A stretch of 64,000 bases of DNA from Takakia lepidozioides (lineage: Eukaryota; Plantae; Bryophyta): the NCBI GenBank assembly GCA_030704615.1, contig CM060731.1, positions 67,084,001 through 67,148,000 of the forward strand. The letters run 5' to 3'. Position numbers and translations under genes: made by a program. A model generated the notes under the pieces. It did no database searches. It was not told the DNA's origin and saw only the letters and a program-made list of their open reading frames with translations. Positions within the stretch are counted from its first letter, which is position 1. Every line of letters begins with the position of its first letter. Positions 1-54,604 of the stretch are shown here, piece after piece.

Positions 1-1767
1 CCTCCTATTAAGTAATTTGCTTACCAAGAGAGTGTCAAGGAGCGTGCTATAGTTCAAAAAGAAGTGCAGGAAATGCTAGATGTTGGTGTCATTAAACCAT
101 CAGTTTCTCCTTGGGCAAGCCCAATTGTCCTGGTTGGAAAGAAAAATAGCACTACCTGCTTTTGTGTTGACTTCAGGAAGTTGAATGACATTACCAAGAA
201 AGAGGTCTATCCCCTGCCCATGATCAATGAGATCTTAAATCAATTGCATGGTGCTACCATCTTCTCCTCCTTTGATCTTGCATTTGGTTTTTGGCAAGTA
301 CCTCTCACTGATGCAGCAAAAAAAAAGACCTCCTTCGTGTGTCACATAGGTAAGTATCAATATGAGACAATGCCCTCTGGCCTCTGTAATGCTACCTCTA
401 CTTTCTAGCGCCTCATGGATATTGTGTTGGATAATCTCCGCTGGGATGTGCCTTGATTTACATAGATGATATTAATGTATACTCAACAAATTTTGATGCC
501 CGTGGACTGATCTGCAATGTGTGTTCAGAAAATTGCGCACTGCAGACCTAAAGGTTAAACCAAAAAAATGTGAGCTATTTATGCTTGAGCTGCATTTCCT
601 TGGGCATGTCCTGTCCAGGGATGGCTTACTTCTTAATCCTGCCAAGCTTGAATCTGTTTGGGGCTTTCCTATTCCCCGGGATAAACATTGCATCAAATCC
701 TTCATTGGTCTAGCTTCTTATTACAGGCGCTTCATTAAAAACTTTGCTAAGCTTGCTCACCCTCTAACCAAGGTGTTGTTAAAGGATGTCAGGTTTGAAT
801 GAACCTTCTCCCAGCAAGCTATCTTTGACACCCTCCGCAAAGCCTTGTGTTCAGCATCCATCTTGATGTTTCATAACTTTGAATTACTTTTCCTGCTCAA
901 GACTGATGCATCGGATGTTTTTATTTCTGCAATCTTGTGTCAAGTTGTAGAAGGAAAAAAACATGTAATAGCCTATGCATCCTGCCGTCTAGACCATCAT
1001 GAGAAGAATTATTCCATATCTGATAAGGAAGGTCTGGCCCTGGTTTTTGGTGCGAAGCACTTCAGGCAATATTTACATGGCAGCCGGTTTGTGGTAGAGA
1101 CTGATCATCGTCCACTAAAAACTCTTGTTAGGCCAATGGAGCTTCATGGCAGGAAAATATCAACACTGATGCGCGGACCCGTGTTGATCCTCTTGTTAGT
1201 AGGCCTTTGCTCACCTTGGATGATCTTGCAGCTACTGATGCAGCCACTACTCCAAATCCAGTTCATATTCTCAACCTCATTTGCGCAGATCAGCGACCCT
1301 TGGCCTTGGATTCTCATTGCAACTTGGCTGCATGGGGCTGGTCTAGCCTTTCTTGATGATCCTGGTTGATTTGCTCATGTGCTAGTATGTATGGTGGACC
1401 TAAAGCTTAGTGAGAATTCGGATAGTTTGGTGGAAGTTCCTTGACATGTTCCAGCTCTTCTCTTTCCTAGGCTCCCGAGTTTGTTGTAATTCAACTGCTG
1501 CACTCCGGTGTGACTTTGGCTTGAACTTCAAGGCCTGATTTGGCTATCCATGAGTAGTAACAAATGAGGTGAAGAGAATCCCTCGCTGGAGATCATAGGT
1601 GCGGGCACTCCAGTCCACCTTCACTAAAGCCGATTGTCTATCTCTTATGTGCAGTGCAGTCATGGATGATCAGCTACATATTGCGCTACTCCTGCGATGC
1701 CAAATTGGGCGTTCGTCAACCGGCCTTTCTGAATCATTGCATAAACAAATTCTCTATCATGTGTCTA
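1..1767 (+). pseudogene. Decayed Ty3/Gypsy pol (RT, RNase H and linker) of the host element 'Gypsy-1'; 5' part lies outside the window
   Basis: ORFs 64-408 (SPWASPIVLV, CVDFRKLN, YPLPMI, FDLAFGFWQV), YIDD at ~458-470, 521-802 (FLGHVLS, SFIGLASYYRRFI), 845- (LKTDASD, IAYAS, NYSISDKEGLA, ETDHRPL); stops and frameshifts; truncated at the CACTA insertion. Confidence 0.93.
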
Positions 1768-9800: not shown

Positions 9801-10987
9801 TGGAACGTGAAGTTGTGGAAGGAAGTTCTAAAGCCCGAAAATTGAATGACCTGTGTGATATTGTACATGAGTACATCATTCAGAACCATCCTCGTCTATC
9901 AGTCATGTTGGGGTAAGAAATCTACTTCATTGACATTCAGATTTCCAAGTTTTAGTCATTTATCATTAGTTGGCATATGGCGTCTTTTCAAATCTCCCAC
10001 GCCACCTCTGTCAATCTCCTGGCTGACCCTCGGATTGTGACAGGATATATGAAGCAGAAAGAAGCCAGACGACGCTTGTTTCGTGAGGAGCAAGGGCTGG
10101 AAGGCATGAGCAATCCCACGGCAATTCAGTACCCTCCTGATTTGCATCCTTGTCCTCCATTTGCTGTTTGGCTCCCTCAAGGTGTACGGGATCATCTCTC
10201 AATTCAATCAGATGGGCTTGATCCTACAACACGTGAGGAATTACTGGATCTTTCAAGGCCTCCATCATTTACTGCCCTGTCATTCAAGAGTATGACAGCG
10301 TATGGTAACCATTACAGGGTTACATCCCCCGGCATGAACACAACAAGTATGGTGTCTTTTGATTGTGGAGTCTCATCTGTTTTCCAGCACCAGCCCATTA
10401 CCAACAATTCAGGCAATGACATGGAGGAACCTACAAGATATGTGGGTCTTATAAGGGAGATTTTGCAAATTGACTATGGCCAAACACAGCCTATAGTGTT
10501 TTTGTGTTCGTGGGTACGGGCGAGTCGCGTGGGTCGTCAACCTATGTCAATGAAGCAGGATGATGCTGGCTTCACACTTGTCAATTTTAACCGTATGCTT
10601 CCACCTTCTGAGCAACCTTTTGTGTTTCCTGGCCAGGTTGATCAAGTGTTTTTTTCTGATTGTGTGAAGGAGCCGGGGTGGAAAGTCGTCCTGGAGAAGA
10701 GCCCCCGAGCACGTAGAGTGGTCTGCGACATATCAATTGATAATGATGATGTGGCGGAAGTGGAAGGATTGTTAGCCCCACAAAGACTAGAGGAGACTGT
10801 GGTTACTGATGGCCCAACATGCAGCCGAGCGGTACCGGTTACTCCAGAGCAGGTGGCCTCCTTGTACCTCCGAGCACCCCGTATACGTGGTGATGATGTT
10901 CAGCCAACCCTTGGACAAGATGAAGTCTGTGATGAAGACAGTGATACATGTAGTGACCCAGACATAGATGAGGATGATGAAGATTAG
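6841..10987 (+). pseudogene. CACTA TnpD-like transposase (transposase-associated Cys domain, Transposase_21, DUF4218, DUF4216), spliced and frameshifted
   Basis: MLCNCDEC; LPKTHYEAK, IHACERGCVLFR, CPVC; HPADSKAWRHID; WPVLLVNYNLPPWL; HDYPAYGLLSG; GMKSHDYH; FPPSFFDVMTHLVVHL..GPVASRWMYPMER; QPFVFPGQVDQVFF..PGWKVVL; GT-AG introns ~7063-7449, 8912-9018, 9914-10043. Confidence 0.93.
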
Positions 10988-13610: not shown

Positions 13611-15240
13611 CTCACCGTTTCATGAGTGATAATTTGTTCAAAGAACTCACTCGAGGAGGAGTGTTGTGCTATTTGGAGATGCCACTGGTCACAGAGCCAG
13701 CTGAATGCTTTATTGGAGCGTTTCCATTATTCCTGGTATGTAAGTCACCTTGGCATCAAGAAAACCGTGGCCCACATCCAAAATGTTTACTATTGGCTGG
13801 GAATTCACTGGGGTGTCACGAAGTTCATCTCTAAGTATGAAGGTTGCAGTCGTGCTAACATTGTTTTCCCTAGGGCCCGGATTTTATATAGCCTTTGCCT
13901 ATGACCCATGCATTTGCTCGTGTTGGCATAGAACCCCTTGCACGCACATCAAAGGGTCGAAACTATCTTTGTGTTGTTACCGATTACTTGACTAAGTGGG
14001 TAGAAGTCCGACCTTTGCGTACCAAAGATAATGATGTTGTAGCTTCAGTTCTTCTTCAATGAGATCCTTATGTGGCATGGGTGTCCTCAGGAGATACTAA
14101 CGGATCAAGGCAAGGAGTTTTGTAACCAACTCCTTATGGTGGTTTGCTTTAATTTTGGTGTTAAGCATTGCACCACAGCCCCTTACCATCCCCAGACCAA
14201 TGGCCTCACGGAGCGCTTCAACCAATCTCTTTGCCCAATGTTGGAGAAGAATGGGGCACTTACCAGGGAGTGAGATACATTTCTTCCCCCTATTCTCTTT
14301 GTTTATCGCACCGCCGTGAATGCTAGTACCAAGAAGACTCATTTTGAGTTGTTGTATGGTCGCAAGTGTGTTTCTCCTTTGCATTCTACTCCACTTATCT
14401 CTACTGTTTCTGATCCAGTTAATCTTGAATATACCTTCGTTGAGGATCTTTATGCTAGACATGCAGTCGAGCCATCCATGATGCCAAAGAGAACATTGGG
14501 AGGCAGTGTTTCCGGTGAGTGTGAGCGTGAGCAGAAGAGGAATAATGCTCAATTTTTGAGAATATTCCATCTAATTATGCCCCTGAACCTAACTTGTGAG
14601 TAAAACCCGGAGCTCGTAGCTCCGCGCGATCTACGAATTCATGCAGAAAATGCTGAATCCGCGGAAATGAAACATACGACAATTCCGCAGTTTCGATTTG
14701 CCACAGATATATTGAACATGCACCCAAACACTCAATGCAAGAAAAAGTATTCTTGGCATATTCGAATATTTATGGTATATTCACATATTCTTGGGATATT
14801 CTTGTCTTATTCTTGAAATATTCATAAGATATTTCTGGTATATTCGAATATTTTTAGGATATTCTTTGTTAGTATTATTGGGATACCCCAACAAATATTC
14901 TTGGAATATTCTTGGACCGGAGCCTGACCCGAATCAGCCACTCACGCTCACGATATATCCGCCCCCGAACATTGGTAAGGCTCAATTAACTCAAGCCCGA
15001 AATTTTAACAAGCGTGTCAAATATTCTAATCTGTTTCAGGTGGGAGAGACCGTGTGCCTTCGGTTGCAGCATATGGTAAGCATGCATGCAAATCTAAGCT
15101 CAAGATCGATGGTCCATACTTGTTGTATCAGATTTTTTGTGGGCGACGTGCTCTCCTTCTTCTGAAGAGACCTAATGTCACAGCGCATGATAAACTTGTT
15201 TCTCTCACTGATTTGGTGCATTCCGAGTTAGTTTTTAAGC
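13611..15240 (+). pseudogene. Decayed Gypsy-1 integrase (zinc-binding region, DDE core, GPY motif), interrupted by a MITE
   Basis: SHLGIKKT..YYW; DYLTKWVEV; HGCPQEILTDQGKEF, TTAPYHPQTNGLTERFNQ; FELLYGR; after removing the MITE: AKENIGKAQLTQARNFNKR..FQVGETV..DGPY. Confidence 0.9.
14499..14966. mobile_element. 468-bp non-autonomous DNA element (MITE; Mutator- or hAT-like by TSD length)
   Basis: Direct repeat GAACATTG at 14491-14498 and 14967-14974 (9 bp if the next G is counted); imperfect TIRs GGAGGCAG..GTGAGTGTGAG vs GGGGGCGG..GTGAGCGTGAG; AT-rich non-coding core; excision restores the integrase frame. Confidence 0.85.
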
Positions 15241-15693: not shown

Positions 15694-15778
15694 TGTCGTG
15701 CACCTAAGCATCGTGCCACAACATACATCGCTGTCCACCACACAATCTAAGCACACAATCCTAGAAAGCTATACCACA
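15694..15778. repeat. Terminal repeat Y, outer copy (85 bp, TG..CA)
   Basis: Matches 16203-16287 with 1 mismatch. Confidence 0.95.
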
Positions 15779-15779
15779 A

Positions 15780-16200
15780 TGATAAGAGATGAGAAATGAG
15801 AGAAGTAGAAGACAATGAAAGCTCTCAAAGCATGAAGCAATCACATGAAGAACAAGCCCTAGTCCTTCCAAGTGAAATCCACTCTATCACATAAACTAAG
15901 TCAAGCCAAGGGCACCTTTGCTAAAGGGATCCACCCTACAAAGCCCTCAATACACTCCCTCTCAATACCTAGAGCTATGGAGGTGAGAAAAGCTCATGGA
16001 GGCTCAACTACAAGAAGATGAGCCTCCTCAACACTCACAAGGGGAAAACCTATCTCCATGTCTCAAGTGAGGCTCGACACCTCACTTGGCATGTGAGACC
16101 AAATGAAGTCCCAACACACAAAATATAAATATAAATATCTAAAATGTCCTAGTTAACTAGAAGTAGGTAATTCTAGATAACCATGACTAAAACCATGACA
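15780..16200. repeat. LTR-like repeat X, 3' copy (421 bp, TG..CA)
   Basis: Colinear with 24909-25329; about 9 substitutions by eye (~98% identity). Confidence 0.95.
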
Positions 16201-16202
16201 GT

Positions 16203-16287
16203 TGTCGTGCACCTAAGCATCGTGCCACAACATACATCGCTGTCCATCACACAATCTAAGCACACAATCCTAGAAAGCTATACCACA
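16203..16287. repeat. Terminal repeat Y, inner copy, adjacent to the PPT
   Basis: Matches 15694-15778; on the - strand it is preceded by TAGGGGGGCGAT. Confidence 0.95.
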
Positions 16288-16296
16288 ATCGCCCCC

Positions 16297-16404
16297 CTAG
16301 CTGGGACATAACCAATCCCCATCAGGAACCATCTCAAGAGGTGGAGTCAAGCATCCCATATGCCAACCTCTAGAGCATTGATCACACACCAGCATGGTGG
16401 CTGC
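16297..16404 (-). pseudogene. PHD zinc finger at the integrase C-terminus (first Cys pair missing)
   Basis: Manual translation: AATMLVCDQCSRGWHMGCLTPPLEMVPDGDWLCPS*, matching PHD CxxC-x4-H-xx-C..PPL..VP.G.W.CP. Confidence 0.85.
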
Positions 16405-17785
16405 CTGTCAGGTTTGGGTCAACCCTTCCATCAACATTTGGAAGGTGACATGGCGCGCAATTACGCACATGGTCCTTCCAAATCATGCCATCCCAACCCT
16501 CCAAGATCAGGACTCCTGAGGGCAACACCTCTCGAACCCTCAAAATAGTACGTCCTGCAGTCACATCCAAGGTCGTAGGAGCAGTCTGCTGTAGATAAAC
16601 ATAGTAACCAGGGTTGAATCTCCGAACCCCAGGACGATAGCCCCCACCACGTATGGTAGCATACCTCAACGTATCACGATGTTGTGCAATGGCAAGGTTC
16701 TCGAAAGCCATGGGCATGACTTTCTTGAACAACTCTGCACGCTGCTCACATGCACGTGCCTACACGTCCGGATCGTCAAGGTTAAGAACTGTAGCAGCTT
16801 CTCTGCGAATGGATGTAGGCAAATCCGGCTCTCGGCCAAAGAGAAGAAAGTATGGTGAGAAGGAGGCAAGTGATGCTTGCTTGCTGAACCTGTAGCCCAT
16901 GGCTAACCAGGGTAACTGAAGGTCCCAATCTCTTAGGTGTCCCTTCTGCAAGCCATACTTGCGCAAACCCCTCTTTACTGTCTGAACAACTCTCTCTGCC
17001 AAGCCATCGGCCTCAGGATGATCCCGAGAAGTGGTGCGGTGGTCTATCAAGGCCTTGTCACACAAAGCCTGAAACTCCCCCAAGAACTCTCTCCCTTGGT
17101 CCGTGAGTACCTCAGCTGGAGCACCGAATCGGCTAAGCACACAATCCAAGAATGCATACGCAACTCCCTCACTAGCCTTATCAGGCAATGGAACCAATTC
17201 AATCCACTTGGAGAAGTGCTCCACCATCACCAACACATACTTGTTGTGGCGCATGGTCAGTGGCAACGGCCCTGCGAAGTCAAGACTCCACCTGTAGCCC
17301 AATCCCATGATCGGAAGAGGGTGCAATTGTGGAGTAGGGGCGTTGAATGAAGCACGCACCCTGTTACACACCATGCACCTAGCCACAAATTGTTGCACCT
17401 CTGTGTGCATACCACGCCACCAATATTGCCCCTGCAGTAGACTATGAGTGCGTCGCACCCCAAAATGCCCCAACTCCTCATGGGCATGCCGCACTAACCG
17501 TGCCCGTTGTGTTGGGTGAGGCACAATCCTCACTCGACCATCCTCCCACACTCGGAGCAGGTGTGTCCCCTCCCACTTGAACCTCTTGGCTCGTTGTAGG
17601 ATCCGATCCCTTTCCTTGGCAGTCACAGTGGCTGCTGAAGTGGATCCAGTGCGGAGGTAGTCCAACACAACTGAATCCTCATGTATATCTTTGGCGCCAC
17701 CTTGCTCATTGCTGGCCTCAGGGTCCTCAGACACTTGATCTACAGTCATCCCTATTGCAGGTCCAACCTGGCCTTCCGCTGCCAA
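16405..17785 (-). pseudogene. Integrase (HHCC zinc domain, DDE core, C-terminal extension)
   Basis: HAHEELGHFG..YWW..CMVC; WSLDFAGPLP; VEHFSKWIE; EVLTDQGREF; HPEADGLAERVVQTVK; one in-frame TAG at 16760-16762. Confidence 0.95.
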
Positions 17786-17809
17786 GATACATAGAAATGC
17801 AGATGCATG

Positions 17810-18170
17810 TCATCCGGGCACCATCTCCTCGTCCGTCTCACCATGCCACCGAGCTCCAGTGTCATCCTGCTGGCTTGTGCATGGATTGCGACTCAACCCA
17901 TCTGCATTGCGATTGACCAAACCCGGTCGATGCACCACCTCAAAGTCATACTCTTGAAGGATGAGTGCCCACCGTGCAAGCTTCCATGTAAGCTTGTCTG
18001 ACTCCATCAACCACTTGAGTGGTTGGTGATCCGTGACAAGGGTGAAGAGATTGCCGTATAGATAGCACCTGAAGTGTGCAACGGCCCACACTGCAGCTAA
18101 GCATTCTCCCTCATATGAGCTATACTTAGACTCTGCAACGTTGTTCGAGCGGCTAACATAAGCCACTACG
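17810..18170 (-). pseudogene. RNase H (N-terminal part deleted)
   Basis: AYVSRS..ESKYSSYEGECLAAVWAV..FRCYLYG..VTDHQPLKWL..LARWALILQEYDF..NADGLSR. Confidence 0.93.
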
Positions 18171-18860
18171 AACTCTCATGCTTTTCCACCGTAGCACTAA
18201 AGATGATGATGTCATCTATGTAGCACCGAACAAACTCCACCCCTGCTAGAATCCTATCCATGACTCTCTGAAACTCTGCCGGAGCGTTCTTAAGCCCAAA
18301 TTGTAAGAACCACCACTGGTATAGGCAATCCTTCCCGTGCTCATTGAGCCCCCAGAATGCCGTCTTTTGCTTATCCGCCTCCTTGATCGGCAACTGGTGA
18401 TATCCGGATCGTAAATCCAACGTACTAAAGACCTTGGCATGCCCAATGGCATCAAAGATCTCCTCTAGTGTTGGCATGGCATACCTATCGGACTTGGTCT
18501 GACGATTTACAGGCCGGTAATCACCGCACATACGTCTCTTCGTCCAATTGCCAAAGACATCCTTCTTGGCTGGCATCACTGTGGCTGAAGCATACTCTCC
18601 CCCAGATAGCTCCACCAAACCAGCCTCCCAAAGGTCCTGAGTTCTCTTATGAATCAAGAACCTCTCCATGTCACTGTATCTATAGGGTCTCCAAAAGATT
18701 GGCGTGTCAGTAGCCAATTCAATGCAAATCTCTTGACCCTTCAGTGCTCCTAAGTCCTTCAAACTGAAGGCAAAGCAGTTCCTGTAAGCCCTCAAGAACC
18801 GCCGTATACGTTGTCTCTCTCCTCCGGTGACTATAGGTCCAACATCAGGCTTCCAGTTGT
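18171..18860 (-). pseudogene. Reverse transcriptase (truncated shortly after YIDD)
   Basis: RRMCGDYRPVN, DRYAMP, STLDLRSGYHQL, KTAFW, FGLKNAPAEFQR, CYIDDIIIFS; joined directly to RNase H at ~18170. Confidence 0.95.
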
Positions 18861-19219
18861 CCTCCGTGACTGCAACCTTGAGTCCAGCAGGCTTAGAGGT
18901 AGAAGACGAGTCCCGTGGTTGCTATGCTGCAACCTCTTGAGCAGTGACCACTGCCTCCTCTGTCAGTGACAATGTCTCATCCTGCCCTATCATCCCATCC
19001 TTGAGGACCTCCTCAATCCGAGAAAAATCCCCAACCTGATCCATCACCGCCGCCTTGGCTGCCAACTCCTTCTGAACCTCGAGCACCTCCCACGTGTGCC
19101 ATGGATGCGGCCTGCACCTCGTGGTCCTCACCTGCTCGCCCCCACTCGCTGCCTGTACCGTCTCGGTAGGCAGGGAGACTATGAAGGGAAGTGTACTCCG
19201 TACTCTGCGCTGCTCAGCC

Positions 19220-19660
19220 ATAGCCAGTGGCACATTCTCCAAGATGTATGCTGGAGATACAGCTTGATGAAACTGCAAGTGGCGCAAAATCTGCACCATC
19301 TCCCAAAACAGACCCGTCCTCGAGTCTCGCAATCCATTGCCATGTCCGGCTGATGAATGCCCTTGGCAGGGCCAACCTGCCACTACCAGATCAATGGAGC
19401 CAACCCGCTCCAAATCCTGCGCCCCCAGCAACGAAATGTCTGCTGGCAAGGCTTGTTGGTATCCACGAACTGCAGACACTGGCAACAAATCAGGGTACTG
19501 CTATACCAACTGAGCAACATGGCGCAGTGAGACGCGTCGTGCAGTCTCATCCCTCTCCACATACAGGTAACGTCGAACTCGTACACCTGCCTGCAGTACT
19601 GCAACCAATCCAGTGCTGATCCCGCCAAACAAGTCCAGAAGGCATATGCCTTCATCCGGG
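19220..19660 (-). pseudogene. C5-cytosine DNA methyltransferase domain (DNMT3-like motifs I-VI) within the pol frame
   Basis: Motif I LLDLFGGISTG (~19610-19642), motif II YLYVERD, motif III ADI, catalytic motif IV IDLVVAGWPCQGHS (~19354-19395), motif V GLRDSRTGLFWE, motif VI YILENV (19231-19248); one in-frame TAG at 19501-19503; motifs VIII-X not seen. Confidence 0.92.
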
Positions 19661-20039
19661 CACTGCCACACAAGAGGTGTGGTATCCAATGGCGACAACT
19701 GAGGTGGTCCTGGTGCAATCACCGCACTCTCCTCTTCTCCTGACGGTACAAAGGCCTCTACCCAGGCTTGTTGTACCCGTCCATCAGCAGCCTGCTGCAA
19801 ATCCTTGCTCGTACCCCATAATGGAGTGTGAGCAACCATGGCAGGCAACTCCGCCGTACCATGCATGTCATCCTGCTCTGCTGGAGGTGGCACATCCTCT
19901 GCATGGGCATTGCCTTCCAGCAACTCTCCAGGCCAACTAACTGCAGCTGTAAAGGCGGCTAGTGTTGGCATCTTGCCCCGCTGGGCAGCCGCAATACCCC
20001 CAATGAATGTCACAGGGAGTTGTGCACGACGACCATCCC

Positions 20040-20420
20040 CTGACTGCCATCCAGGCCTGTAGGATGCTGACTCCTCCCAAAAGTCCAGGGTGAAGCCCAT
20101 GGGATATAACACTGCCCCACCAACAAGGACATCGTAAGAGACCGCGTCTGTCACAATGGCCTTGGCTCGCATCACTGAGCCATCTACAAGATGATCTGGT
20201 TGTAGTCCAATGGCCAACTCACGCCGTGTCATGCCCGAGCCTGCTCTGATCCTCCCAGAGATGTCTGTATCTGGAAAGGACAAGGCTCCATATCCGCCTC
20301 CATGAGGCCCAAACCTACAATAGCAGCTCTGCCCAACATCAGTGGCTGAGTTCCTGAGTCCAACAAGACCCGCAATGGCCGGTACTTCTTGCCTGCCGGT
20401 CCACTCAAAGTGAAAATGCC
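20040..20420 (-). pseudogene. Aspartic protease
   Basis: RVLLDSGTQPLMLG (DSG at 20352-20360), then SYDVLVGGAVLYPMGFTLDFWE after one frameshift. Confidence 0.85.
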
Positions 20421-20891
20421 TCCCTAGTTGTCTAACAAGACAACTCCAGGTGTCACCATGGCGCGCTCAAAGGCTGGCCTAGCTGACAGCTCCGTCAACC
20501 TGGCAGCTGTAGCTTGCCAGGGCGCAGCCGTGGCAGTCTTGACCCTCAAATCCAAGGATCACTCTGCCACTACACCTTCCAGTAACTCCGGAGAAGATGA
20601 AGTGACCTCCCCACTCTCGCAGAGTGTTGCTGCTAGTCTGAACACTGCAGCTGGTCTTACCCCCGGCGTCGCAATCATGGTTGCCGAGAACAGTGGGGCT
20701 TGACACACAGAGGTGGCTGCTCCCAATAACACACCGGCTGCATTAGCCTTGGTAGCAGGTGTCAGTGCTGCACGTGTAGCTCTCCCCAATGGCATAGTAA
20801 CCTCCGCCTCGGTAACAGTCGGGCGAGAACTAGATGCCATGGATGACGTCGACACTGTCTCTGCCAATGTGAATGACTGAGGAAGCCTTGC

Positions 20892-22570
20892 CTAACGGCT
20901 TGCCTCCCCATGCTGTGGATCCAATTCCACCTCTGCACCTCGTGGCTCAGGAACTCGTGCTGCTCCTCGAGTCACGGCTGCAGCAGACTCCACCTGCACT
21001 AGTGGTAGTGCTGCTCCGCACATGAATCCCATGCCTCCCATATCTCCTCCCTCAGGAGCAGGAGGTGGACCATCCCGCCTGGGAGCCGGTACCACCTGAG
21101 CTGTAGCCATGGCAGCGAGCCTCTGCTCTAGCTGCTGAAGCCGGTTGGCCATGTCTTGGTCAACACCCTGACCTCCGCGTCCTTGGCCATGTTGAGCTTG
21201 CCCTTGGCCTGCACCTCGTGCCCAACCACCTCGTCCTCTCTGGGCTGGTCCACCTCGCCCCCGGCCACCATTGTTCCCTTGGAACTGGCATGGGCGCAAC
21301 TCAGGGTGCAAGTCATAACACTGGGCATCTCCATGCCCATACTTGCCACAATGCCCACACTGCAACTGTGCAGGCTGTGCTTGTGCCGACCTTCTGCCAC
21401 TCTCTGGGCAATCTCTCTTGACATGGGGTCCTCCACATGTCCAATATATTACCCCTGGTTGTTGTTGGCTGCAAAAGATGCCACGGGCCTCTGCACCTGA
21501 GGTCCCCTGTAAGCTCCATGGGACTTGGGTTGGGCAACCTTGCCCCCCTGACCACGCTGTTGGGCAGTCCCTTGTACCTGTTGGCTGGCAGCTGCACCTC
21601 GTGCAGACATGTCCTTGCCAAATCCAATGGTAACAACTCTCTCCTCCACCATGTTGAGCTCAATCCGCTCAGCCAGCAGAAACACATCCGCTAATGTGGG
21701 TTGGGCCGCTTGTAACAGGGTTGCATCCCGCACCCTTCTCTTGAGCTCTTTGTTCAAAATTCCATACCAGAACTGGACTGCCTGAGCTTCAGTAACCCCT
21801 TGGGTCACACTTATCAAGCGCCTCATACGAGTGTAGGCATCTCGCAAGCTCTCACTGGATTTGCGCTGGAAGTCTTGCAAACTTCGCAGCTTCTCTATCC
21901 GTACACCTTGGTAGTTCCTCCGCAACTCCTGGAAAAACTCCACCACCGGGTTGAATCTAGGCACATGTGTTGTAATTGTGGCAGGAGGAGTAGTAGCACC
22001 TTTTGAACTGGTACCACCTGCAGAAGTGCCGGCACTACTTGTTCCACTACTAGCGCTTGTAGTTGGAGATGTTTGTGTAGCTGCTGGTGTCACCGCTGCC
22101 CTTGTGCCTCTAGTGATTGAGACATAGTTAGGTGACCAATACTCTCGCCACTCCTCAATCTCCACCGCATGTCCCCGCCTAAATTCATGGTAATCATCCA
22201 TGGGCGGCCCCTCAAGGTGCTGGAATAGCCCCTTCCACGCCATAAAGGGCGTAAACAGTTGTGGATTGCGCATTTGCTGCAAATCACACCAACTGTCAAA
22301 CTCTTGTATAAAGTCATCAAGCTCGATGGTGCCCACAGCTCCAGAGTACCTACGTGGCCCCTTGGTAGCTCCATACATCTCCTCCATCGTGTCCCACAAC
22401 AATGGCACGGAAATGACTTGCACCCTCGGCGAGAATCCTCCGGACTTCGAGTCTGAACCTTCCTCAGAAGACACTGAAGGTGAAAGTGGCCTAAACCGCA
22501 CACCTTGTCTTGTGTACCCACTAGTATCGCTGGTGCTTGTACCGGCACTCCCCTCAGCAGCTGGTGGCAC
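20892..22570 (-). pseudogene. Gag with two zinc knuckles and an RGG-rich region
   Basis: ORF 21449-22570 (LDDFIQEFDSWC, FQRKSSESLRDAYTRMRRL, FWYGIL); (Y)WTCGGPHVKRDC at ~21408-21446; CGHCGKYGHGDAQC at ~21318-21359. Confidence 0.85.
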
Positions 22571-23384
22571 CTCCGTGATGAGAACTCACAACCCAACCGG
22601 TTGTCAACATGTCTCTAATCCCACTTTCTACAAGGTAACCGGGTAAAGAACCTGTTGCGGCTACTGGTTCAAGTAGGAATAATAGGTTTCTAACGTAGAC
22701 CTGTACCTGCACCTGCATCCACCGCAAACACTCCTATGGTCTGCTGGTCATCAACCCAGCCTCACCATAGAAGAAACACTGGTGGTCTTGCTGGTCATCA
22801 CTCCAGCCTCACCACCGACAGCATACTCTAGGATTGGCCGGTGATCAAATCCGGACCAACCTCCTATGAAAACAAGTGCCCACACAAAGCTAACATGGCG
22901 CACAGTCAAGCATGCAGGTGTGGAGGGGATCCAAACACAAGAAAATCAAGACAACAACTCCCCCACACCAAAAACACTCCACAGTGTCGCTCCTGCAAGG
23001 ACACCCCAGCCCAAACCCGGACTGACTCTTGCCTCCACCTACGCAAAGGTTTTGGCCTACAGAGAGGGTGAAAGACTATGGAGAAGAGAAACTAAAGCAA
23101 TTCCTAACCCCAGAATGCTCTCATCCCACCACTCTCCCTCCTGTCTCTATCCACTCGCTTATATGGTCGTGGCAAGTATCCTTCAATATCCCTCAATCAA
23201 TCCTTCAAGAGCTCTTCAACATTGTCCACCAAAGCTCCTCGAAGGGTCCTCCAAGGACCCCAAAGATCCTCCAAACACTCCTCCAAGGACCCCAAAGATC
23301 CTCCAAATACTCCTCCAAGGGCCCTCAAATATCTTCCAAACAATCCTCCAAAGGCCCTTAAATTTCACTAAGTCCTTTCACTGT

Positions 23385-23690
23385 TGATACCTTAACAGAG
23401 GTATAGTCTGAGCTGATTAGGGTCCACATATGGTGATACCTCAACAGAGGTATAGTAAAAGGGACAAGCTCCTGTTTGGTATACTAACAGAGGTATAGTC
23501 TGAGCTGATTAGGGTTCACATATGGTGATACCTCAATAGAGGTATAGTAAAATGGACAAGCTCATGTTTGGTATACTAACAGAGGTATAGTCTCACATTA
23601 GGGTTCACATATGGTGATACCTCAACAGAGGTATAGTCAAAGGGACAAACTCCTGTTTGGTATACTAACAGAGGTATAGTCTGAGCATAC
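23385..23690. repeat. Tandem minisatellite in the retroelement 5' leader
   Basis: Seven copies of core A(C/T)AGAGGTATAGT spaced ~44-49 bp, with two alternating linker types (~92-bp higher-order unit). Confidence 0.9.
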
Positions 23691-24896
23691 ACTACTAGGG
23701 TTTGTAATGAAGAGCTAGAATGCAAGTCTTTGACTTCTATGCTTCTACTCAAGCAAAAATATGGTCTCTAGGTGGTCATAAGAGGCATCTTCTTGCTCTC
23801 TTCCACCCCAATGTGCAACCAAGAGTGGTCCAACTCAACTTGCAAGTCATTGTCCACCAAATCAATCCCCCTTCTAGTCCTTGGGATTTGATTGCAAACT
23901 ACCATATCTCCATTGTCGAGCAATCATGCATTTGTCTCCTCATCACTTGACAATTGTTCCAAATCAACACAAATTATCTCAATGTGTAGGAGCAATGCTT
24001 GTCACTTACAATAATGCTCCCAAGCAATCCGCCTTGGATCCCACTCTCACGCCATATGCCTCATTTGGGGTCTTGCACCAATCCATCATCCATGTGCCCC
24101 CCGTGGTCATTTGAATGCATGTTTCATGACCTCTTGGCCTATGTGTTGCTCTCCTTCATCATAACATGAATCAACACCTCTCCACTTCACACACAAATGG
24201 ATCTCAAAGGCCTTAACCTCTTGTTAGTTCAAGAGCTCGCACTACCAAGAGCATGAATAGCCAAGTATTGCCTCCCCCTCTTGTCACATTACATAGTTAG
24301 GGTGAAGCTATGCATACATTGAATGATGATTTCCTTTCAAGGATTTCCCACCACATGTTCTCCAAGCCCTTCCAATGGCACCCTAAGCTTGGCTCCACAC
24401 CACCATGATTGGAAGATTTCTTCACATGCTCCCTTTCAAAACCTCTTGAGCTTCTTAGTGCTCTCCAAGTGCTTGCCCTTGTTGTCTTCAAGCCCAAGCA
24501 TATATAGCTCCTTGGCTTCTCTTCCACAACATCCACACTTTGAACTTGCTTAACCCTAGCTTGATAGTGAAATGAGCACTAACAAGCCTTTAGTCACTCT
24601 CCACAAGCCATGGCGCACACCATCGACTCCATAATGCATACAAAGGATTCTCAAACCCTAGAATCCATGCTTCCACACACACAAGACTTCCTCCTTACAA
24701 TCCTTGCAAAATCTTGTGACTCAAGAGCTTTCTTCTCAAGCTCTCCAACTCCTTGGTGCATGCAATACTCGAGCACCTTTCCTTGCAACCCCTTGCAAGC
24801 CTTGTGATACAAGAGCTAAATTCTCCTAGCTCTCAACCTCTTTAAAATACAAGTGCAAAACTAATCCTTACACTCCGCACTCACAAGCATAAGGTG

Positions 24897-24908
24897 ATCT
24901 TCTTGTAG
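24897..24908 (-). promoter_or_regulatory. Self-priming primer-binding site
   Basis: Directly abuts the 5' X repeat; ATCTTCTTGTAG is the exact reverse complement of CTACAAGAAGAT at 25137-25148 inside X; no TGG-type tRNA PBS. Confidence 0.65.
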
Positions 24909-25329
24909 TGAGAAGAGATGAGAAATGAGAGAAGTAGAAGACAATGAAAGCTCTCAAAGCATGAAGCAATCACATGAAGAACAAGCCCTAGTCCTTCCAA
25001 GTGAAATCCACTCTATCACATAAACTAAGTCAAGCCAAGGGCACATTTGCTAAAGGAATCCACCCTACAAAGCCCTCAACACACTCCCTCTCAATACCTA
25101 GAGCTATGGAGGTGAAAGAAGCTTATGGAGGCTCAACTACAAGAAGATGAGCCTCCTCAACACTCACAAGGGGAAAACCTATCTCCATGTCTCAAGTGAG
25201 GCTCGACACCTCACTTGGCATGTGAGACCAAATGAAATCCCAACACACAAAATATAAATATAAATATCTAAAATGTCCTAGTTAACTAGAAGTAGGTAAT
25301 TCTAGATAACCATGACTAAAACCATGACA
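24909..25329. repeat. LTR-like repeat X, 5' copy (421 bp)
   Basis: Matches 15780-16200. Confidence 0.95.
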
Positions 25330-50626: not shown

Positions 50627-52081
50627 ATGAGTTGCAATGGGTGCCGAGTACTAAGAAAGGGCTGCAGTGACTCTTGTATACTCCGGCCTTGCCTGCAGTG
50701 GATTGAGACTTCCGATGCTCAAGGTCATGCCACTGTGTTTGTGGCCAAGTTTTTTGGTCGCGCAGGTCTAATGGGATTCATCAGTGCAGTTCCAGAAAGC
50801 CAACGCCCTGGTAAGCCAAAAGCCCTGCCTAGATGACATTTAGTCTTCTCTCTTCTTCGAACTTTGTCTGCAAATTCACTTTTGCTGAGTAAAGCACGTG
50901 TGGAAGAAATGAATGGTGGGGTTGAATTTTCTTCACAGTGTGTGATCAGGAACAATTAAGTTTTGTGTAAGAGCGCACACATGAGCAAGAAGGGGTTTAA
51001 TATACACATACGAATGTTACGAATGCATGAACTAGCTCGGATTATCTAGATTGATTATCTCAAGATGATGATGGATACGAAGTCAACTTTACACTCAAGG
51101 GACGTTAACATATGGATGAGCTTTGCATGTGCAGCGTTATTTCAATCACTTCTCTACGAGGCTTGCGGAAGGACGGTGAATCCGGTGTTTGGAGCAGTCG
51201 GTCTCCTTTGGGCTGGAAACTGGCAAGCATGTCAAGCTGCTGTCGACACCGTCCTAAAAGGGGGCTCGCTACATCCGCCCTCTCCTTCCACGTTATCTTC
51301 CTATTCTCTCCCGTCAAGTTTGCCACCAGCACACTTGTCTCATATGCCTCGTGTTGCTCTGGGAAAATCTGCTGCACCTAGGGAGTGTTTGATGACCTTT
51401 CTCCCACACTCACCCTCAGAGCCGGTGAAGGATGTGAGGTTAAAGGTAGGGCCCCCTGAGGCAAATCTGCTGCAGGCAGCTGGTCAAGATCTAAGAGACC
51501 ATCCAAATGCAGCACGAGGGGATGCTGATCGTGGAAACACACGACATTGGCAAGACTGGCACCAACATCGGATTTTGCAGGGAAACGTTCCACATCACAA
51601 CACTTCGCCAGGGGCAGTGAAAGGTGGGTTGTGTTCCAACAATCAAAGGGGATCTGGCTTGGAATCGAAGGCTGATCAATATGGGCTATCTGCACAGAGC
51701 TCCCAGCCGGGCCAGACGAATGTGTATGTTGCCCATATCGGAGCCCCTGTTCCTAGGAGGGTTAGACCCAGATTGACCACGGAATTTGTAACCCTTGAAC
51801 GGCCAATGGCTAGAGGAGGATCGCAGGAGGAGTTGGAGGCAACAGTGGCAGCCACTGGGATGGAGCAGCTAGAGCTAGATCTGACACTGGAGGTGAAGGG
51901 TGTGAAAGAAGGACAAGCTGTGGGCACTAAGAGGTTATCCAGTCCATCATGCGAGTCAGTCAATTCAGAAGGATCTGTGACTAGCCTAGACAGCACGCCA
52001 GACCCCTCGATGCCGAGCTGGCCACTTCAGATAGGCGCTTTTGCAGCACCTCATCGTAAGCTTTTGCCCCTTCTCCAGTAA
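50627..52081 (+). CDS. LBD: Class II LOB-domain (LBD37-42-type) transcription factor; exons 50627-50810 and 51135-52081
   Basis: [73 protein letters not shown]; EAR-like LELDLTL; C-terminal KLLPLL. Confidence 0.96.
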
Positions 52082-53813
52082 CCGTTCAGATGAGCTCGTG
52101 TTGGAGTCTCCAAGGTTGACCTCGAGTGATGTAAGATTTCTAGAGGATTATGATAGTTTTAAGGGCTCTCCGGTAAATGTTCCAAGTATAAGCTAACACT
52201 ACACACATAGATGAGAGGACCCCAGGGGGATCCCAGAGGGAGGATCAGAGGGCCCTCTTAGAAAGAGAAAAGCGGAGAGGGTAACCCGAACGAGAATAGT
52301 CACTGATTCCAGGTGAGAGTAGGTTAATGCTGCAGTTTACAATGCTGCCCATGTGGAGGCTTGCAAGTGCCTACTCTTTTTGTTCATCCGCCGATCATGA
52401 TTTCATGATCTGTTATGCTTATCAAGCTTAGCCAGTCTGAATAAAGGGCACTGTTATTTATGAGGCATTGTTTCCTTGTCTGGACAAGTGTTTTACACTA
52501 TTTTATTGCTTGGAGTTGGATCCATGATAGCCTGCATGTGCTGTGCTCTTATAATCCCACTTAGGTGTACCAACTCCTGAGCTGTGGTATAGCGGTGTCC
52601 AGAAGTTCAGAAGAGTGATGTCCAGAAGTTCTTTCTGGCAATGGGCGCTCTTGTAGAGATCATCACCTGTAGACCTGTGTGAGATTCTGAGGCCTGCAGT
52701 TTCCTTGGTTTGTGCAAAGCTGGCCTAAAAGTCTTTAGCAATCTTTTGATCAGTCAGTGAATGGAGACCTGCACATTTTGCCAGCAAACCAGATATCCAG
52801 ATTTTCTAAGGAGACGGGCAGGAGGGAAAGGCCCAGACATGTCAGTGAATTGTCAAGTGCATTACAGCACATGCCTCTGTTTGATATAGTTGGCTGAGTC
52901 TTGTCCTGTTCAATTGTTATTGTTGAAGAATTTGACCTTGATATGTATATGGTGGACTGACAGATCTTGAGGTATGTTCAACCTACCTGGAGTTTTAGTC
53001 TAAGTTAATCCTGGTAATGCAAAGTGTTTTTCAATGTCAGTGTACAATAAAACTGCACTTGAGTAGATTCACAGGCTGTATTCATGTATGAAGAAGAACC
53101 TTGAATACACTGTTAGCTGGGGGATTTATGTTTGTGGATGGTCTCTTCATCTCACTGACTGTGCAGGGATATGTTTGCAAGCCCAAGGAGAAAGTAGAGC
53201 CCCTCTTTGGGTTTAACATGTTAATGTTTGGTGGGCGATTTCCGCAATTAGAGCAGTTCTAAGGTTTTTGAGTGTAGGCTCTTGAGCCAGCATCGATGGT
53301 TTAGAATGACACTACTAAAATCTGACATAGGCTGTTTGCCATGTTCACTGCTCAGGTCACAACTTGACATACCTCTGTATTACTACCAAATCTATGAATC
53401 TTACCATATACCACTGAATCAGTTCCTTTGAAAGAGGAGGTTCATATTTTGTGAACTAGCGGATGCCTTCTTTGTGTTACTTTGCAACTTGTTGTCAAAT
53501 GCAGCTGCCTAAGTTTCTCTTTAGCACTTCTGGTGATAAGGAGGTGATAAGTGCCTTAAATGTCCAGCGCGGAGATGGTGAGGGAGATCAAAAGTAAGCC
53601 CCCTTCAAATGATTCTTTCTAGTAGTTCCAAGTTTGATTTCAAGCATTTCCCTTTCCACTTGGCTCTTGAGGTTGCAATGACTAACTGACTGGAATCTGA
53701 ATGCAGGTATGGTCAGAGGACATAGCTGGCTCAAAGTATGCATGCCATTAGATGATGAGCCATCTGATTGTCAAGCTGATTTCATCCCTCAAGACTGGAG
53801 CAGTGGAAGTTAA

Positions 53814-54604
53814 CGTTCTGCAATCATTTCAACTTCAGGAATTCCCTGGAGTGCCCCGCCTACAAGTTTGAACCTGATGAGTTGGTCATGTAACTCATAC
53901 ATGTAGTGAACATACTAAATTATCTTGATGTTTGCAATATGCTGACAATGATGTATCTTTGATAACCTTGGGCATGATCTTTTCTGTCCATGTTCTGGTT
54001 GTGGGGAACTTCCTCTCACTAAGGTATGAAGCTCAGCTCAAATACAGCTAACAACTGGTTTTGCGTTCTGCAATCATTTCAACTTCAGGAATTCCCTGGT
54101 GTGCTCCGCCTACAAGTTTGAACCTGATGAGTTGGTCATGTAACTCATACATGTAGTGAACATATTAAATTATCTTGATGTTTGCAATATGCTGACAATG
54201 ATGTATCTTTGATAACCTTGGGCATGATCTTTTCTGTCCATGTTCTCTGACCCCAGAAGGAAGAACTGGTTGTGGGGAACTTCCTCTCACTAAGGTATGA
54301 AGCTCAGCTCAAATACAGCTAACAACTGGTTTTGCGTTCTGCAATCATTTCAATTTCAGGAATTCCCTGGAGTGCTTCGCCTACAAGTTTAAACCTGATG
54401 AGTTGGTCATGTAACTCATACATGTAGTGAACATATTAAATTATCTTGATGTTTGCAATATGCTGACAATGATGTATCTTTGATAACCTTGGGCATGATC
54501 TTTTCTGTCCATGTTCTCTGACCCCAGAAGGAAGAACTGGTTGTGGGGAACTCCTCTCACTAAGGTATGAAGCTCAGCTCAAATACAGCTAACAACTGGT
54601 TTTG
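53814..54604. repeat. Three near-identical tandem units of 250-271 bp
   Basis: Units start with CGTTCTGCAATCATTTC at 53814, 54064 and 54335; the first lacks ~21 bp. Confidence 0.95.

Follow-up and report, generated by a model that had tools for sequence, protein, structure and literature searches.

Retrotransposons are silenced in plants mainly by cytosine methylation. An element that maintains a DNMT3 of its own in liverworts, mosses, and algae would therefore either camouflage or pre-silence itself. Elements of this kind have been described. KnitGypsy-Dnmt3 of Klebsormidium nitens (de Mendoza et al. 2018, PMC5890265) combines Gypsy domains with an intronless DNMT3-related domain and carries DIRS-like repeats, in which A1 and A2 surround the ORFs and two B repeats surround A2; its DNMT is under purifying selection (Ka/Ks <0.2), the authors took the K. 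nitens lineage to have acquired it, and no methylation was seen when the domain was tried in yeast, an outcome that they termed inconclusive. SymbioDIRS-Dnmt3 of Symbiodinium is likewise a retrotransposon-borne DNMT3 with split repeats, and its isolated domain conferred de novo CG methylation in yeast (PMC5890265). A 2025 survey locates retrotransposon DNMTs in 'streptophytes and dinoflagellates', with bryophytes not named in its accessible text (PMC12344493). Here, we describe an element of Takakia lepidozioides (Bryophyta) that shares with KnitGypsy-Dnmt3 the combination of Gypsy domains with an intronless DNMT3-type domain, the split repeats, and a DNMT under purifying selection. It lies on the minus strand of a stretch of 64,000 nucleotides (the window), to which all positions below refer.

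Profile matches and alignment gave the domain order Gag-PR-DNMT-RT-RH-INT-PHD for the 9,636-bp element (Table 1), which contains the Gag-PR-RT-RH-INT series with DDE integrase of Ty3/Gypsy elements. The Gag region is ~60% identical to Marchantia ORF1 over the first 300 aa, and carries a frameshift near 21460 as well as stops at 20894 and 20561. By eye, we recognized no tRNA primer-binding site after repeat A1 or in the leader. A 15-nt leader motif (22852-22838, minus strand) and a similar stretch downstream of it are also present in the distant element L087 (at 8504), and the motif was not found in the Sphagnum-like loci; could it be a priming or splicing signal?

Table 1. Features of the Gypsy element in the Takakia window
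Feature	Position	Strand	Remarks
Whole Gypsy element	15694..25329	-	9,636 bp; ends TGTCATG...CACGACA
Repeat A1 (5' terminal repeat)	24909..25329	-	98.1% identity to A2 over 421 nt
Long 5' leader	22600..24908	-	contains three ~90-nt tandem repeats, 23416-23686
Gag region	20562..22387	-	Retrotrans_gag weak, E 0.004; CCHC-like knuckles
Aspartic protease region	20000..20460	-	DSG 20360-20352; stop 20426; frameshift near 20235
DNMT3-type C5 methyltransferase, motifs I-VI	19228..19641	-	PF00145; catalytic PC and ENV
Deletion breakpoint, 175 codons in frame (motifs VIII-X)	19225..19227	-	private to the window copy
Conserved in-frame stop TAG CAA CCA (UAG-CAR-YYA), end of ORF1	18916..18924	-	likely readthrough site
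Reverse transcriptase to just beyond YIDD	18166..18915	-	RVT_1; ~455 nt lost at 18177/18173
RNase H, C-terminal part	17813..18175	-	RT_RNaseH E 2.3e-25
DDE integrase	16406..17809	-	Integrase_H2C2, rve; stops 17812 and 16762
PHD finger, C-terminal part, integrase end	16303..16404	-	PF00628 E 6.9e-10; out of frame here
Polypurine-tract-like CTAGGGGGG	16292..16300	-	also in relatives
Repeat B1, 85 nt	16203..16287	-	2-nt spacer to A2: CACGACA-AC-TGTCATG
Repeat A2	15780..16200	-	
Repeat B2 (3' terminal repeat)	15694..15778	-	
Target duplication TCTT, 4 bp	25333-25330 and 15693-15690		flanks the element

Elsewhere in the window, we observed a second decayed Gypsy RT/RNase H remnant unrelated to the DNMT element (4-1153, plus strand), a decayed integrase remnant of another LTR element (13695-14570, plus strand), and a 343-aa frame (9956-10987, plus strand) that matches DUF4216 just under the cut-off (E 7e-7), a domain that we take to be associated with CACTA transposons. 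An open frame with a partial LOB domain (51050-52078, plus strand) is likely an exon of a host gene. Tandem repeats of ~90 nt (23416-23686, inside the leader), ~100 nt (1990-2327), and ~270 nt (53745-54604) are also present.

The first-pass annotation of this DNA had proposed C5-methyltransferase motifs I-VI, including catalytic PC and ENV, in the pol of a Gypsy element, and all of them were located on the minus strand between 19641 and 19228 (i.e., motif I LLDLFGGISTG at 19641-19609, YLYVERD at 19569-19549, ADI at 19443-19435, IDLVVAGWPCQGHS at 19395-19354, GLRDSRTGLFWE at 19335-19300, and YILENVP at 19248-19228). When TAG codons were translated as X before Pfam profile matching, the frame matched PF00145 (E 1.7e-11, 44.6 bits, cut-off 22) and, further along, RVT_1 (E 4.4e-18). 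The best PDB sequence matches were DNMT3A/B (2.5e-11, compared with 1.8e-4 for HaeIII and 7e-4 for DNMT2). Similarly, DNMT3A/B/C accounted for all 34 matches listed for the predicted structure of the intact domain of a relative, L066 (pLDDT 80.9; best E 3e-17). Domain sequence and predicted fold thus both point to DNMT3, and the profile, PDB, and fold matches, together with the relatives described below, bear out the proposal of an intronless DNMT3-type domain belonging to a Gypsy family.

The copy in the window is dead, as had been claimed: it carries frameshifts (near 21460, 20235, and 16405), stops (20894, 20561, 20426, 19503, 17812, and 16762), and two deletions. One of these deletions accounts for the suspected loss of motifs VIII-X after ENVP, where 175 residues are absent relative to Marchantia Mp4g09160. 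The lesions that we checked are private to this copy. More specifically, the TAG at 19503-19501, inside the DNMT, is copy-specific: in run X1, 360,541 of the 365,583 depth units of same-species contigs disagree with the window at 19503, and three other runs behaved likewise. Same-species contigs also continue beyond both deletion points as loose ends, and at 19226/19225 a further ~525 bases are present on a 5-kb contig from a related organism. The summed contig depth for the element in X1 was ~1e6 (24,059 contigs), a measure of depth rather than copy number that suggests many copies of the element.

In the same retroelement setting, relatives of the domain were found in Marchantia polymorpha, M. 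paleacea, Calypogeia fissa, Riccia sorocarpa, three Sphagnum species, Closterium, and K. nitens (GAQ93235.1), and on many further contigs; among algae, relatives were also found in Haematococcus, Hariotina, and Monoraphidium. The proposed bryophyte lineage of Gypsy elements is therefore too narrow a description: the family does occur in bryophytes, but also in Closterium, Klebsormidium, and chlorophytes. Complete DNMT domains occur in Marchantia, Calypogeia, Sphagnum, Closterium, Klebsormidium, and chlorophytes, and the window domain is 66-76% identical to liverwort and peat-moss proteins, which, together with the LOB-domain frame, points to a host that is a bryophyte-like land plant. The profile search yielded 452 clusters (50% identity) at E<=1e-30; PR, RT, RH, or INT was also present in 98 of the best 150, and the remaining 52, mostly short sequences, showed the DNMT alone. 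A second architecture, RT-RH-DNMT-INT-PHD (27 elements), in which RNase H precedes the DNMT and the integrase follows it, is found in chlorophyte relatives such as Haematococcus and Hariotina, and in Monoraphidium the DNMT is located after the RT.

Several database entries deserve mention in this regard. Many Marchantia gene models among P0002-P0005 and P0134-P0147 (e.g., Mp4g09160, Mp8g17980, and Mp6g11220), annotated as host genes, are element ORF1s; two of them, P0004 and P0005, extend into the RT, probably because predicted introns bypass the stop. The intact element L087 comes from an entry whose title gives a cyanobacterial genome assembly, and the name of P0040 derives from a bacterial MAG; in both cases, misbinning of a eukaryotic contig is likely. 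Apart from L087, viral and prokaryote collections returned weak phage or Streptomyces methylases (6/28 and 4/23 pattern matches); as these matches are weak, no bacterial source of the DNMT is indicated.

The three ORFs that had been reported as sharing one frame (19501-20283, 18922-19488, and 18166-18795) do so, and are separated by TAG codons at 19503, 18924, and 18168, but the TAG at 18924-18922 is no lesion. The protease DSG exists, but in a different frame, with the frameshift near 20235. We compared the DNMT-RT junction in the window and in 51 of 80 loci, the other 29 having no such junction. TAG or TAA followed by CAR was the first in-frame stop upstream of the RT in 51 of these 52 junctions (TAG 35, TAA 16), with the upstream match in the same frame in 43 and a frameshift in between in the other 9. 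By comparison, the worst ordinary codon was a stop in 19/74 loci for the DNMT and 16/55 for the RT. In the intact element L066 (1369 + 1047 aa), the junction TAG is the sole stop, and L087 (at least 1162 + 1047 aa) is open except at the same TAG. At the protein level, Marchantia and Calypogeia proteins terminate at the matching place, 95-97 residues past motif X, and GAQ93235.1 (P0316), a K. nitens Gag-PR-DNMT protein, terminates 15 residues past motif X, so that at least one K. nitens model, as deposited, likewise stops after the DNMT. Four runs covering 18922-18924 listed no difference from the window, which is weaker than proof of identity. Judged from these alignments, the pre-RT TAG is a feature of the family and not damage.

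The six nucleotides following this stop are those of a known leaky context. CAR YYA is an essential part of the readthrough context of TMV, which is ~10% efficient, and the verified cases of programmed readthrough in plants were all viral as of 2009, according to the same source (PMC2754532). The hexamer is CAA CCA in the window, L035, and L020; CAG TTA in L066 and L067; and CAA TCA in L069 and L087, and UAG-CAR-YYA is complete in the window, L035, L066, L067, L069, and L087. Differences among these hexamers are confined to the degenerate positions of CAR YYA, although the residues that they encode are not constant (QP, QL, or QS), and random hexamers match at 0.2-0.3% of positions. In the Sphagnum-like group (43/52 junctions), the hexamer is CAA CCC, which departs from the consensus at one base and is immediately followed by an ATG; this group may use weaker readthrough or reinitiation. 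Because this group consists of near-copies of one family, which make up most of the 52 junctions, the independent evidence amounts to about five lineages, four of which have the full motif. Conserved RNA structure 3' of the stop was not detected (z +1.1 to -2.9, mononucleotide shuffles). Proteins of more distant relatives in which DNMT and RT are fused with no stop in between (P0008, P0010, P0072, P0161, P0205, P0254, and Closterium P0337) indicate that a leaky stop is not required throughout the family. The earlier picture of one intronless polyprotein broken only by mutant TAGs is not supported: as the pre-RT TAG is conserved in a leaky context, the DNMT terminates ORF1 rather than lying inside an uninterrupted pol.

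Two identical LTRs with a tRNA primer-binding site, as in Ty3/Gypsy elements, were not found in the window element; instead, the repeats are split, in the order A1 (25329-24909), body, purine tract, B1 (16287-16203), AC, A2, and B2, with A1 and A2 differing at 8 of 421 positions. The full A1...B1-A2-B2 plan was present in the window, L028, and L065. The purine tract CTAGGGGGG occurs in 16 sequences, the distant L066 and L087 among them, and a CACGACA-NN-TGTCAYG junction (with a few variants) in eight, including L066, L069, and L087. In these last three, the tract and/or the B-NN-A junction can be seen but the split repeats are not whole, and they look like collapsed assemblies. The junction B1-NN-A2 joins a right end to a left end, resembling a circle junction. 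Both ends could be placed in eight elements (the window and seven loci), where TG...CA termini are flanked by a 4-bp target-site duplication, exact in six and with one mismatch in two. On sequence grounds, then, the repeats resemble those of Ngaro/PAT-type DIRS elements, and the insertion bears the marks of a DDE integrase; a tyrosine-recombinase element of the DIRS/Ngaro/PAT type is ruled out by the rve integrase and the 4-bp duplications. We also observed copies of the form A-body-B with their own target duplication (L020, L036, L042, and L079), as expected if recombination between B1 and B2 deletes A2, a split-repeat analogue of solo-LTR formation.

The integrase of both the window element and the intact L066 ORF2 terminates in a PHD finger, whose closest solved counterparts are the PHDs of CHD4, PHF12, PHF21A, KAT6A, ATXR5, DPF3, and KDM5. 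These PHDs read unmethylated H3K4. Among the REXdb groups considered, which also include Phygy and Selgy, chromoviruses (Tcn1, Chlamyvir) have a chromodomain at the integrase end; the intact L066 ORF2 has the PHD and no chromodomain.

Relatives hold motifs I, IV (C), VI (ENV), VIII (RxR), IX, and X, of which the window copy retains I-VI only. The catalytic C is intact in 88 of 91 full-length domains, the E and N of ENV in 90 each, and the motif VIII arginines in 88 and 90, respectively. In 22 of the 91, mostly of the chlorophyte-type architecture (P0011-P0013, P0184, and others), EC replaces the catalytic PC. With saturated pairs excluded (44/80 for the DNMT), the median DNMT dN/dS of the window against the 36 unsaturated loci was 0.14; values were 0.10-0.13 among L066, L067, and L069, and 0.19-0.22 between L035 and three Sphagnum-like loci. 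RT values between lineages were 0.04-0.14 (versus 0.10-0.22 for the DNMT), and the decayed Sphagnum-like set gave 0.60 (DNMT) and 0.40 (RT). Neutral evolution of the domain, raised as a possibility in the first-pass annotation, was thus not borne out; the values between lineages (0.10-0.22) point to purifying selection.

Trees of RT and DNMT for 44 elements (a quick tree for the DNMT), from which proteins with <150 aa of either domain were excluded, resolved identical main groups; they contain no host DNMT3, and the RT tree had the Gypsy remnant at window 4-1153 as a long-branch outgroup. In both trees, the window, L035, Marchantia, and Sphagnum-like loci form a clade, which is sister to L066, L067, and L069 (support 100/98 for RT; 98 for DNMT). 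Each tree also places the 27 elements with the order RT-RH-DNMT-INT-PHD on one side of a single branch. K. nitens GAQ93235.1 clusters with all retrotransposon DNMTs against phage methylases and is not sister to the bryophyte clade, in a quick tree without host DNMT3. As far as these comparisons reach, the DNMT is an old trait of the family, held under purifying selection and descending together with the RT.

Our reading, to which we assign a probability of roughly 0.6, is that the window holds a dead copy of a green-plant Gypsy family that passes from Gag-PR-DNMT to RT-RH-INT-PHD via a leaky stop, and that the excess DNMT likely methylates the element's own cDNA. In the simplest reading of the junction, most translation would yield Gag-PR-DNMT, with RT-RH-INT-PHD made in smaller amounts by readthrough; as readthrough would be occasional, the DNMT would be made in excess over the RT. 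By analogy with TMV, a comparable level of readthrough, which we regard as probable, would supply many Gag-PR-DNMT molecules per RT/integrase. We lean slightly towards a further step in which the protease would free or position the DNMT in the particle, where new cDNA would be the sole DNA substrate, yielding a premethylated copy that resembles old heterochromatin. During reverse transcription, the B1-NN-A2 junction probably templates both ends, after which the DDE integrase would insert the copy; that the PHD finger might steer integration to chromatin without H3K4 methylation is, in our judgment, an even bet. A more detailed scenario is held tentatively, at less than even odds: an ancient split-repeat Gypsy clade, passed down through green algae and bryophytes with its own kit for de novo methylation, in which the branch towards land plants would use a TMV-type stop to load particles with DNMT3 at the Gag level and would premethylate the cDNA, and the PHD would deliver it to H3K4-unmethylated chromatin. 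If true, the element would mirror, in mobile form, the pairing of DNMT3 with its ADD reader, and would likely be the first case of non-viral CAR-YYA readthrough placed after two enzymes.

The DNMT could instead act on host chromatin, at the insertion site or other loci, or could bind nucleic acid, with methylation irrelevant to cDNA; we think this rather unlikely, although some observations would fit it. We found no CpG depletion that could be a footprint of self-methylation (CpG observed/expected 0.48 in the element versus 0.52-0.56 in the rest of the window), nor CHG depletion beyond the window background. The K. nitens domain showed no activity in yeast (PMC5890265), and in chlorophyte relatives the DNMT adjoins the integrase (RT-RH-DNMT-INT-PHD, 27 rows), which would suit action at integration. 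In the clade of the window, however, the DNMT would be produced along with Gag, consistent with its being packaged in the particle, and the near-invariance of its catalytic residues speaks against a role in binding alone.

Less probable still is that the family and the ORF split are as described but the CAR YYA is incidental, with Pol translated either from its own RNA, spliced or subgenomic, or by ribosomes that reinitiate past the stop. Other LTR elements do express pol from spliced RNA, and such a route would accommodate the ATG directly after CAA CCC in the Sphagnum-like group, the TAA in place of TAG at 16/51 junctions, and the early Met at codon 14 of L069 ORF2. On the other hand, ORF2 is in frame with ORF1 in all intact elements, no Met precedes the RT core in the window or L066, where the first in-frame Met lies inside the RT at codons 85 and 117, respectively, and the nucleotide consensus is kept while the residues that it encodes vary. 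Finally, a one-off capture of a host DNMT3 fragment followed by neutral decay, which the half domain and many lesions of the window copy might have suggested, is extremely improbable and is refuted by same-species sister copies that continue beyond the break, by complete domains at the same place in liverworts, peat mosses, and algae, by dN/dS of 0.1-0.2 between lineages, and by the congruent RT and DNMT trees.

The window holds a relic, but support for the family and for its expression signal is good, and both can be tested in Marchantia, in which methylation mutants exist. The role of retrotransposon DNMTs, a question left by de Mendoza et al. 2018, thereby becomes testable in that plant. 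On our reading of a leaky stop, its conservation would tie the enzyme to the dosage of Gag rather than of RT; the family is also a candidate case of non-viral programmed readthrough in plants. The presence of split repeats alongside a DDE integrase suggests that cDNA ends are rebuilt by a route not yet described. Such elements would likely escape LTR finders, which look for a pair of identical repeats.

A comparable in-frame stop is known at the env of SIRE1. The UAG-CAR-YYA of TMV, a single in-frame stop before the polymerase, has the identical hexamer (PMC2754532), and gag-pol stops are likewise used by MuLV (PMC5009743), Candida Tca2 (PMC2194720), and rice RIRE2 (via PMC2754532). In these gag-pol systems the stop follows Gag, whereas in the Takakia family it follows protease and methyltransferase, so that both enzymes would be made at the Gag level. 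Chlamydomonas Gypsy-7a_cRei and REM1 also combine a Gypsy polyprotein with a PHD finger, and are set apart by their description in the accessible text of PMC9940879, which lists no methyltransferase domain. The moss host enzyme PpDNMT3b belongs to the same enzyme family, and de novo methylation at CG and CHH is the activity to be expected; it differs in being a host gene with its own accessory domain, outside any polyprotein (PMC6453930). In the open-access literature searched, neither the leaky stop nor any member of the family from land plants was described, and the accessible texts of PMC6317226, PMC9940879, PMC6673714, PMC11982613, PMC12344493, PMC6453930, and bioRxiv 2021.11.30.470311 describe neither bryophyte members nor the stop.

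Compared with SymbioDIRS-Dnmt3, which has a tyrosine recombinase, an unrelated host, and, according to its authors, an independent origin (PMC5890265), the Takakia family has a DDE integrase. KnitGypsy-Dnmt3 is closer, with a DNMT placed by its authors in one ORF with RT and RNase H (PMC5890265); in the Takakia family the frame is the same, but a conserved stop lies in between. Given this stop in 51/52 junctions, we regard the Takakia family as a variant of the KnitGypsy-Dnmt3 type and not the same family. Moreover, K. nitens GAQ93235.1 is just 35% identical to the window domain, the term 'PHD' is absent from the main text of PMC5890265, and the Takakia family, unlike KnitGypsy-Dnmt3 as described there, has relatives in bryophytes, Closterium, and chlorophytes. 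A DNMT-bearing Gypsy is thus a kind of element already known from KnitGypsy-Dnmt3, from which the Takakia family differs in its conserved stop, its PHD finger, and its host range.
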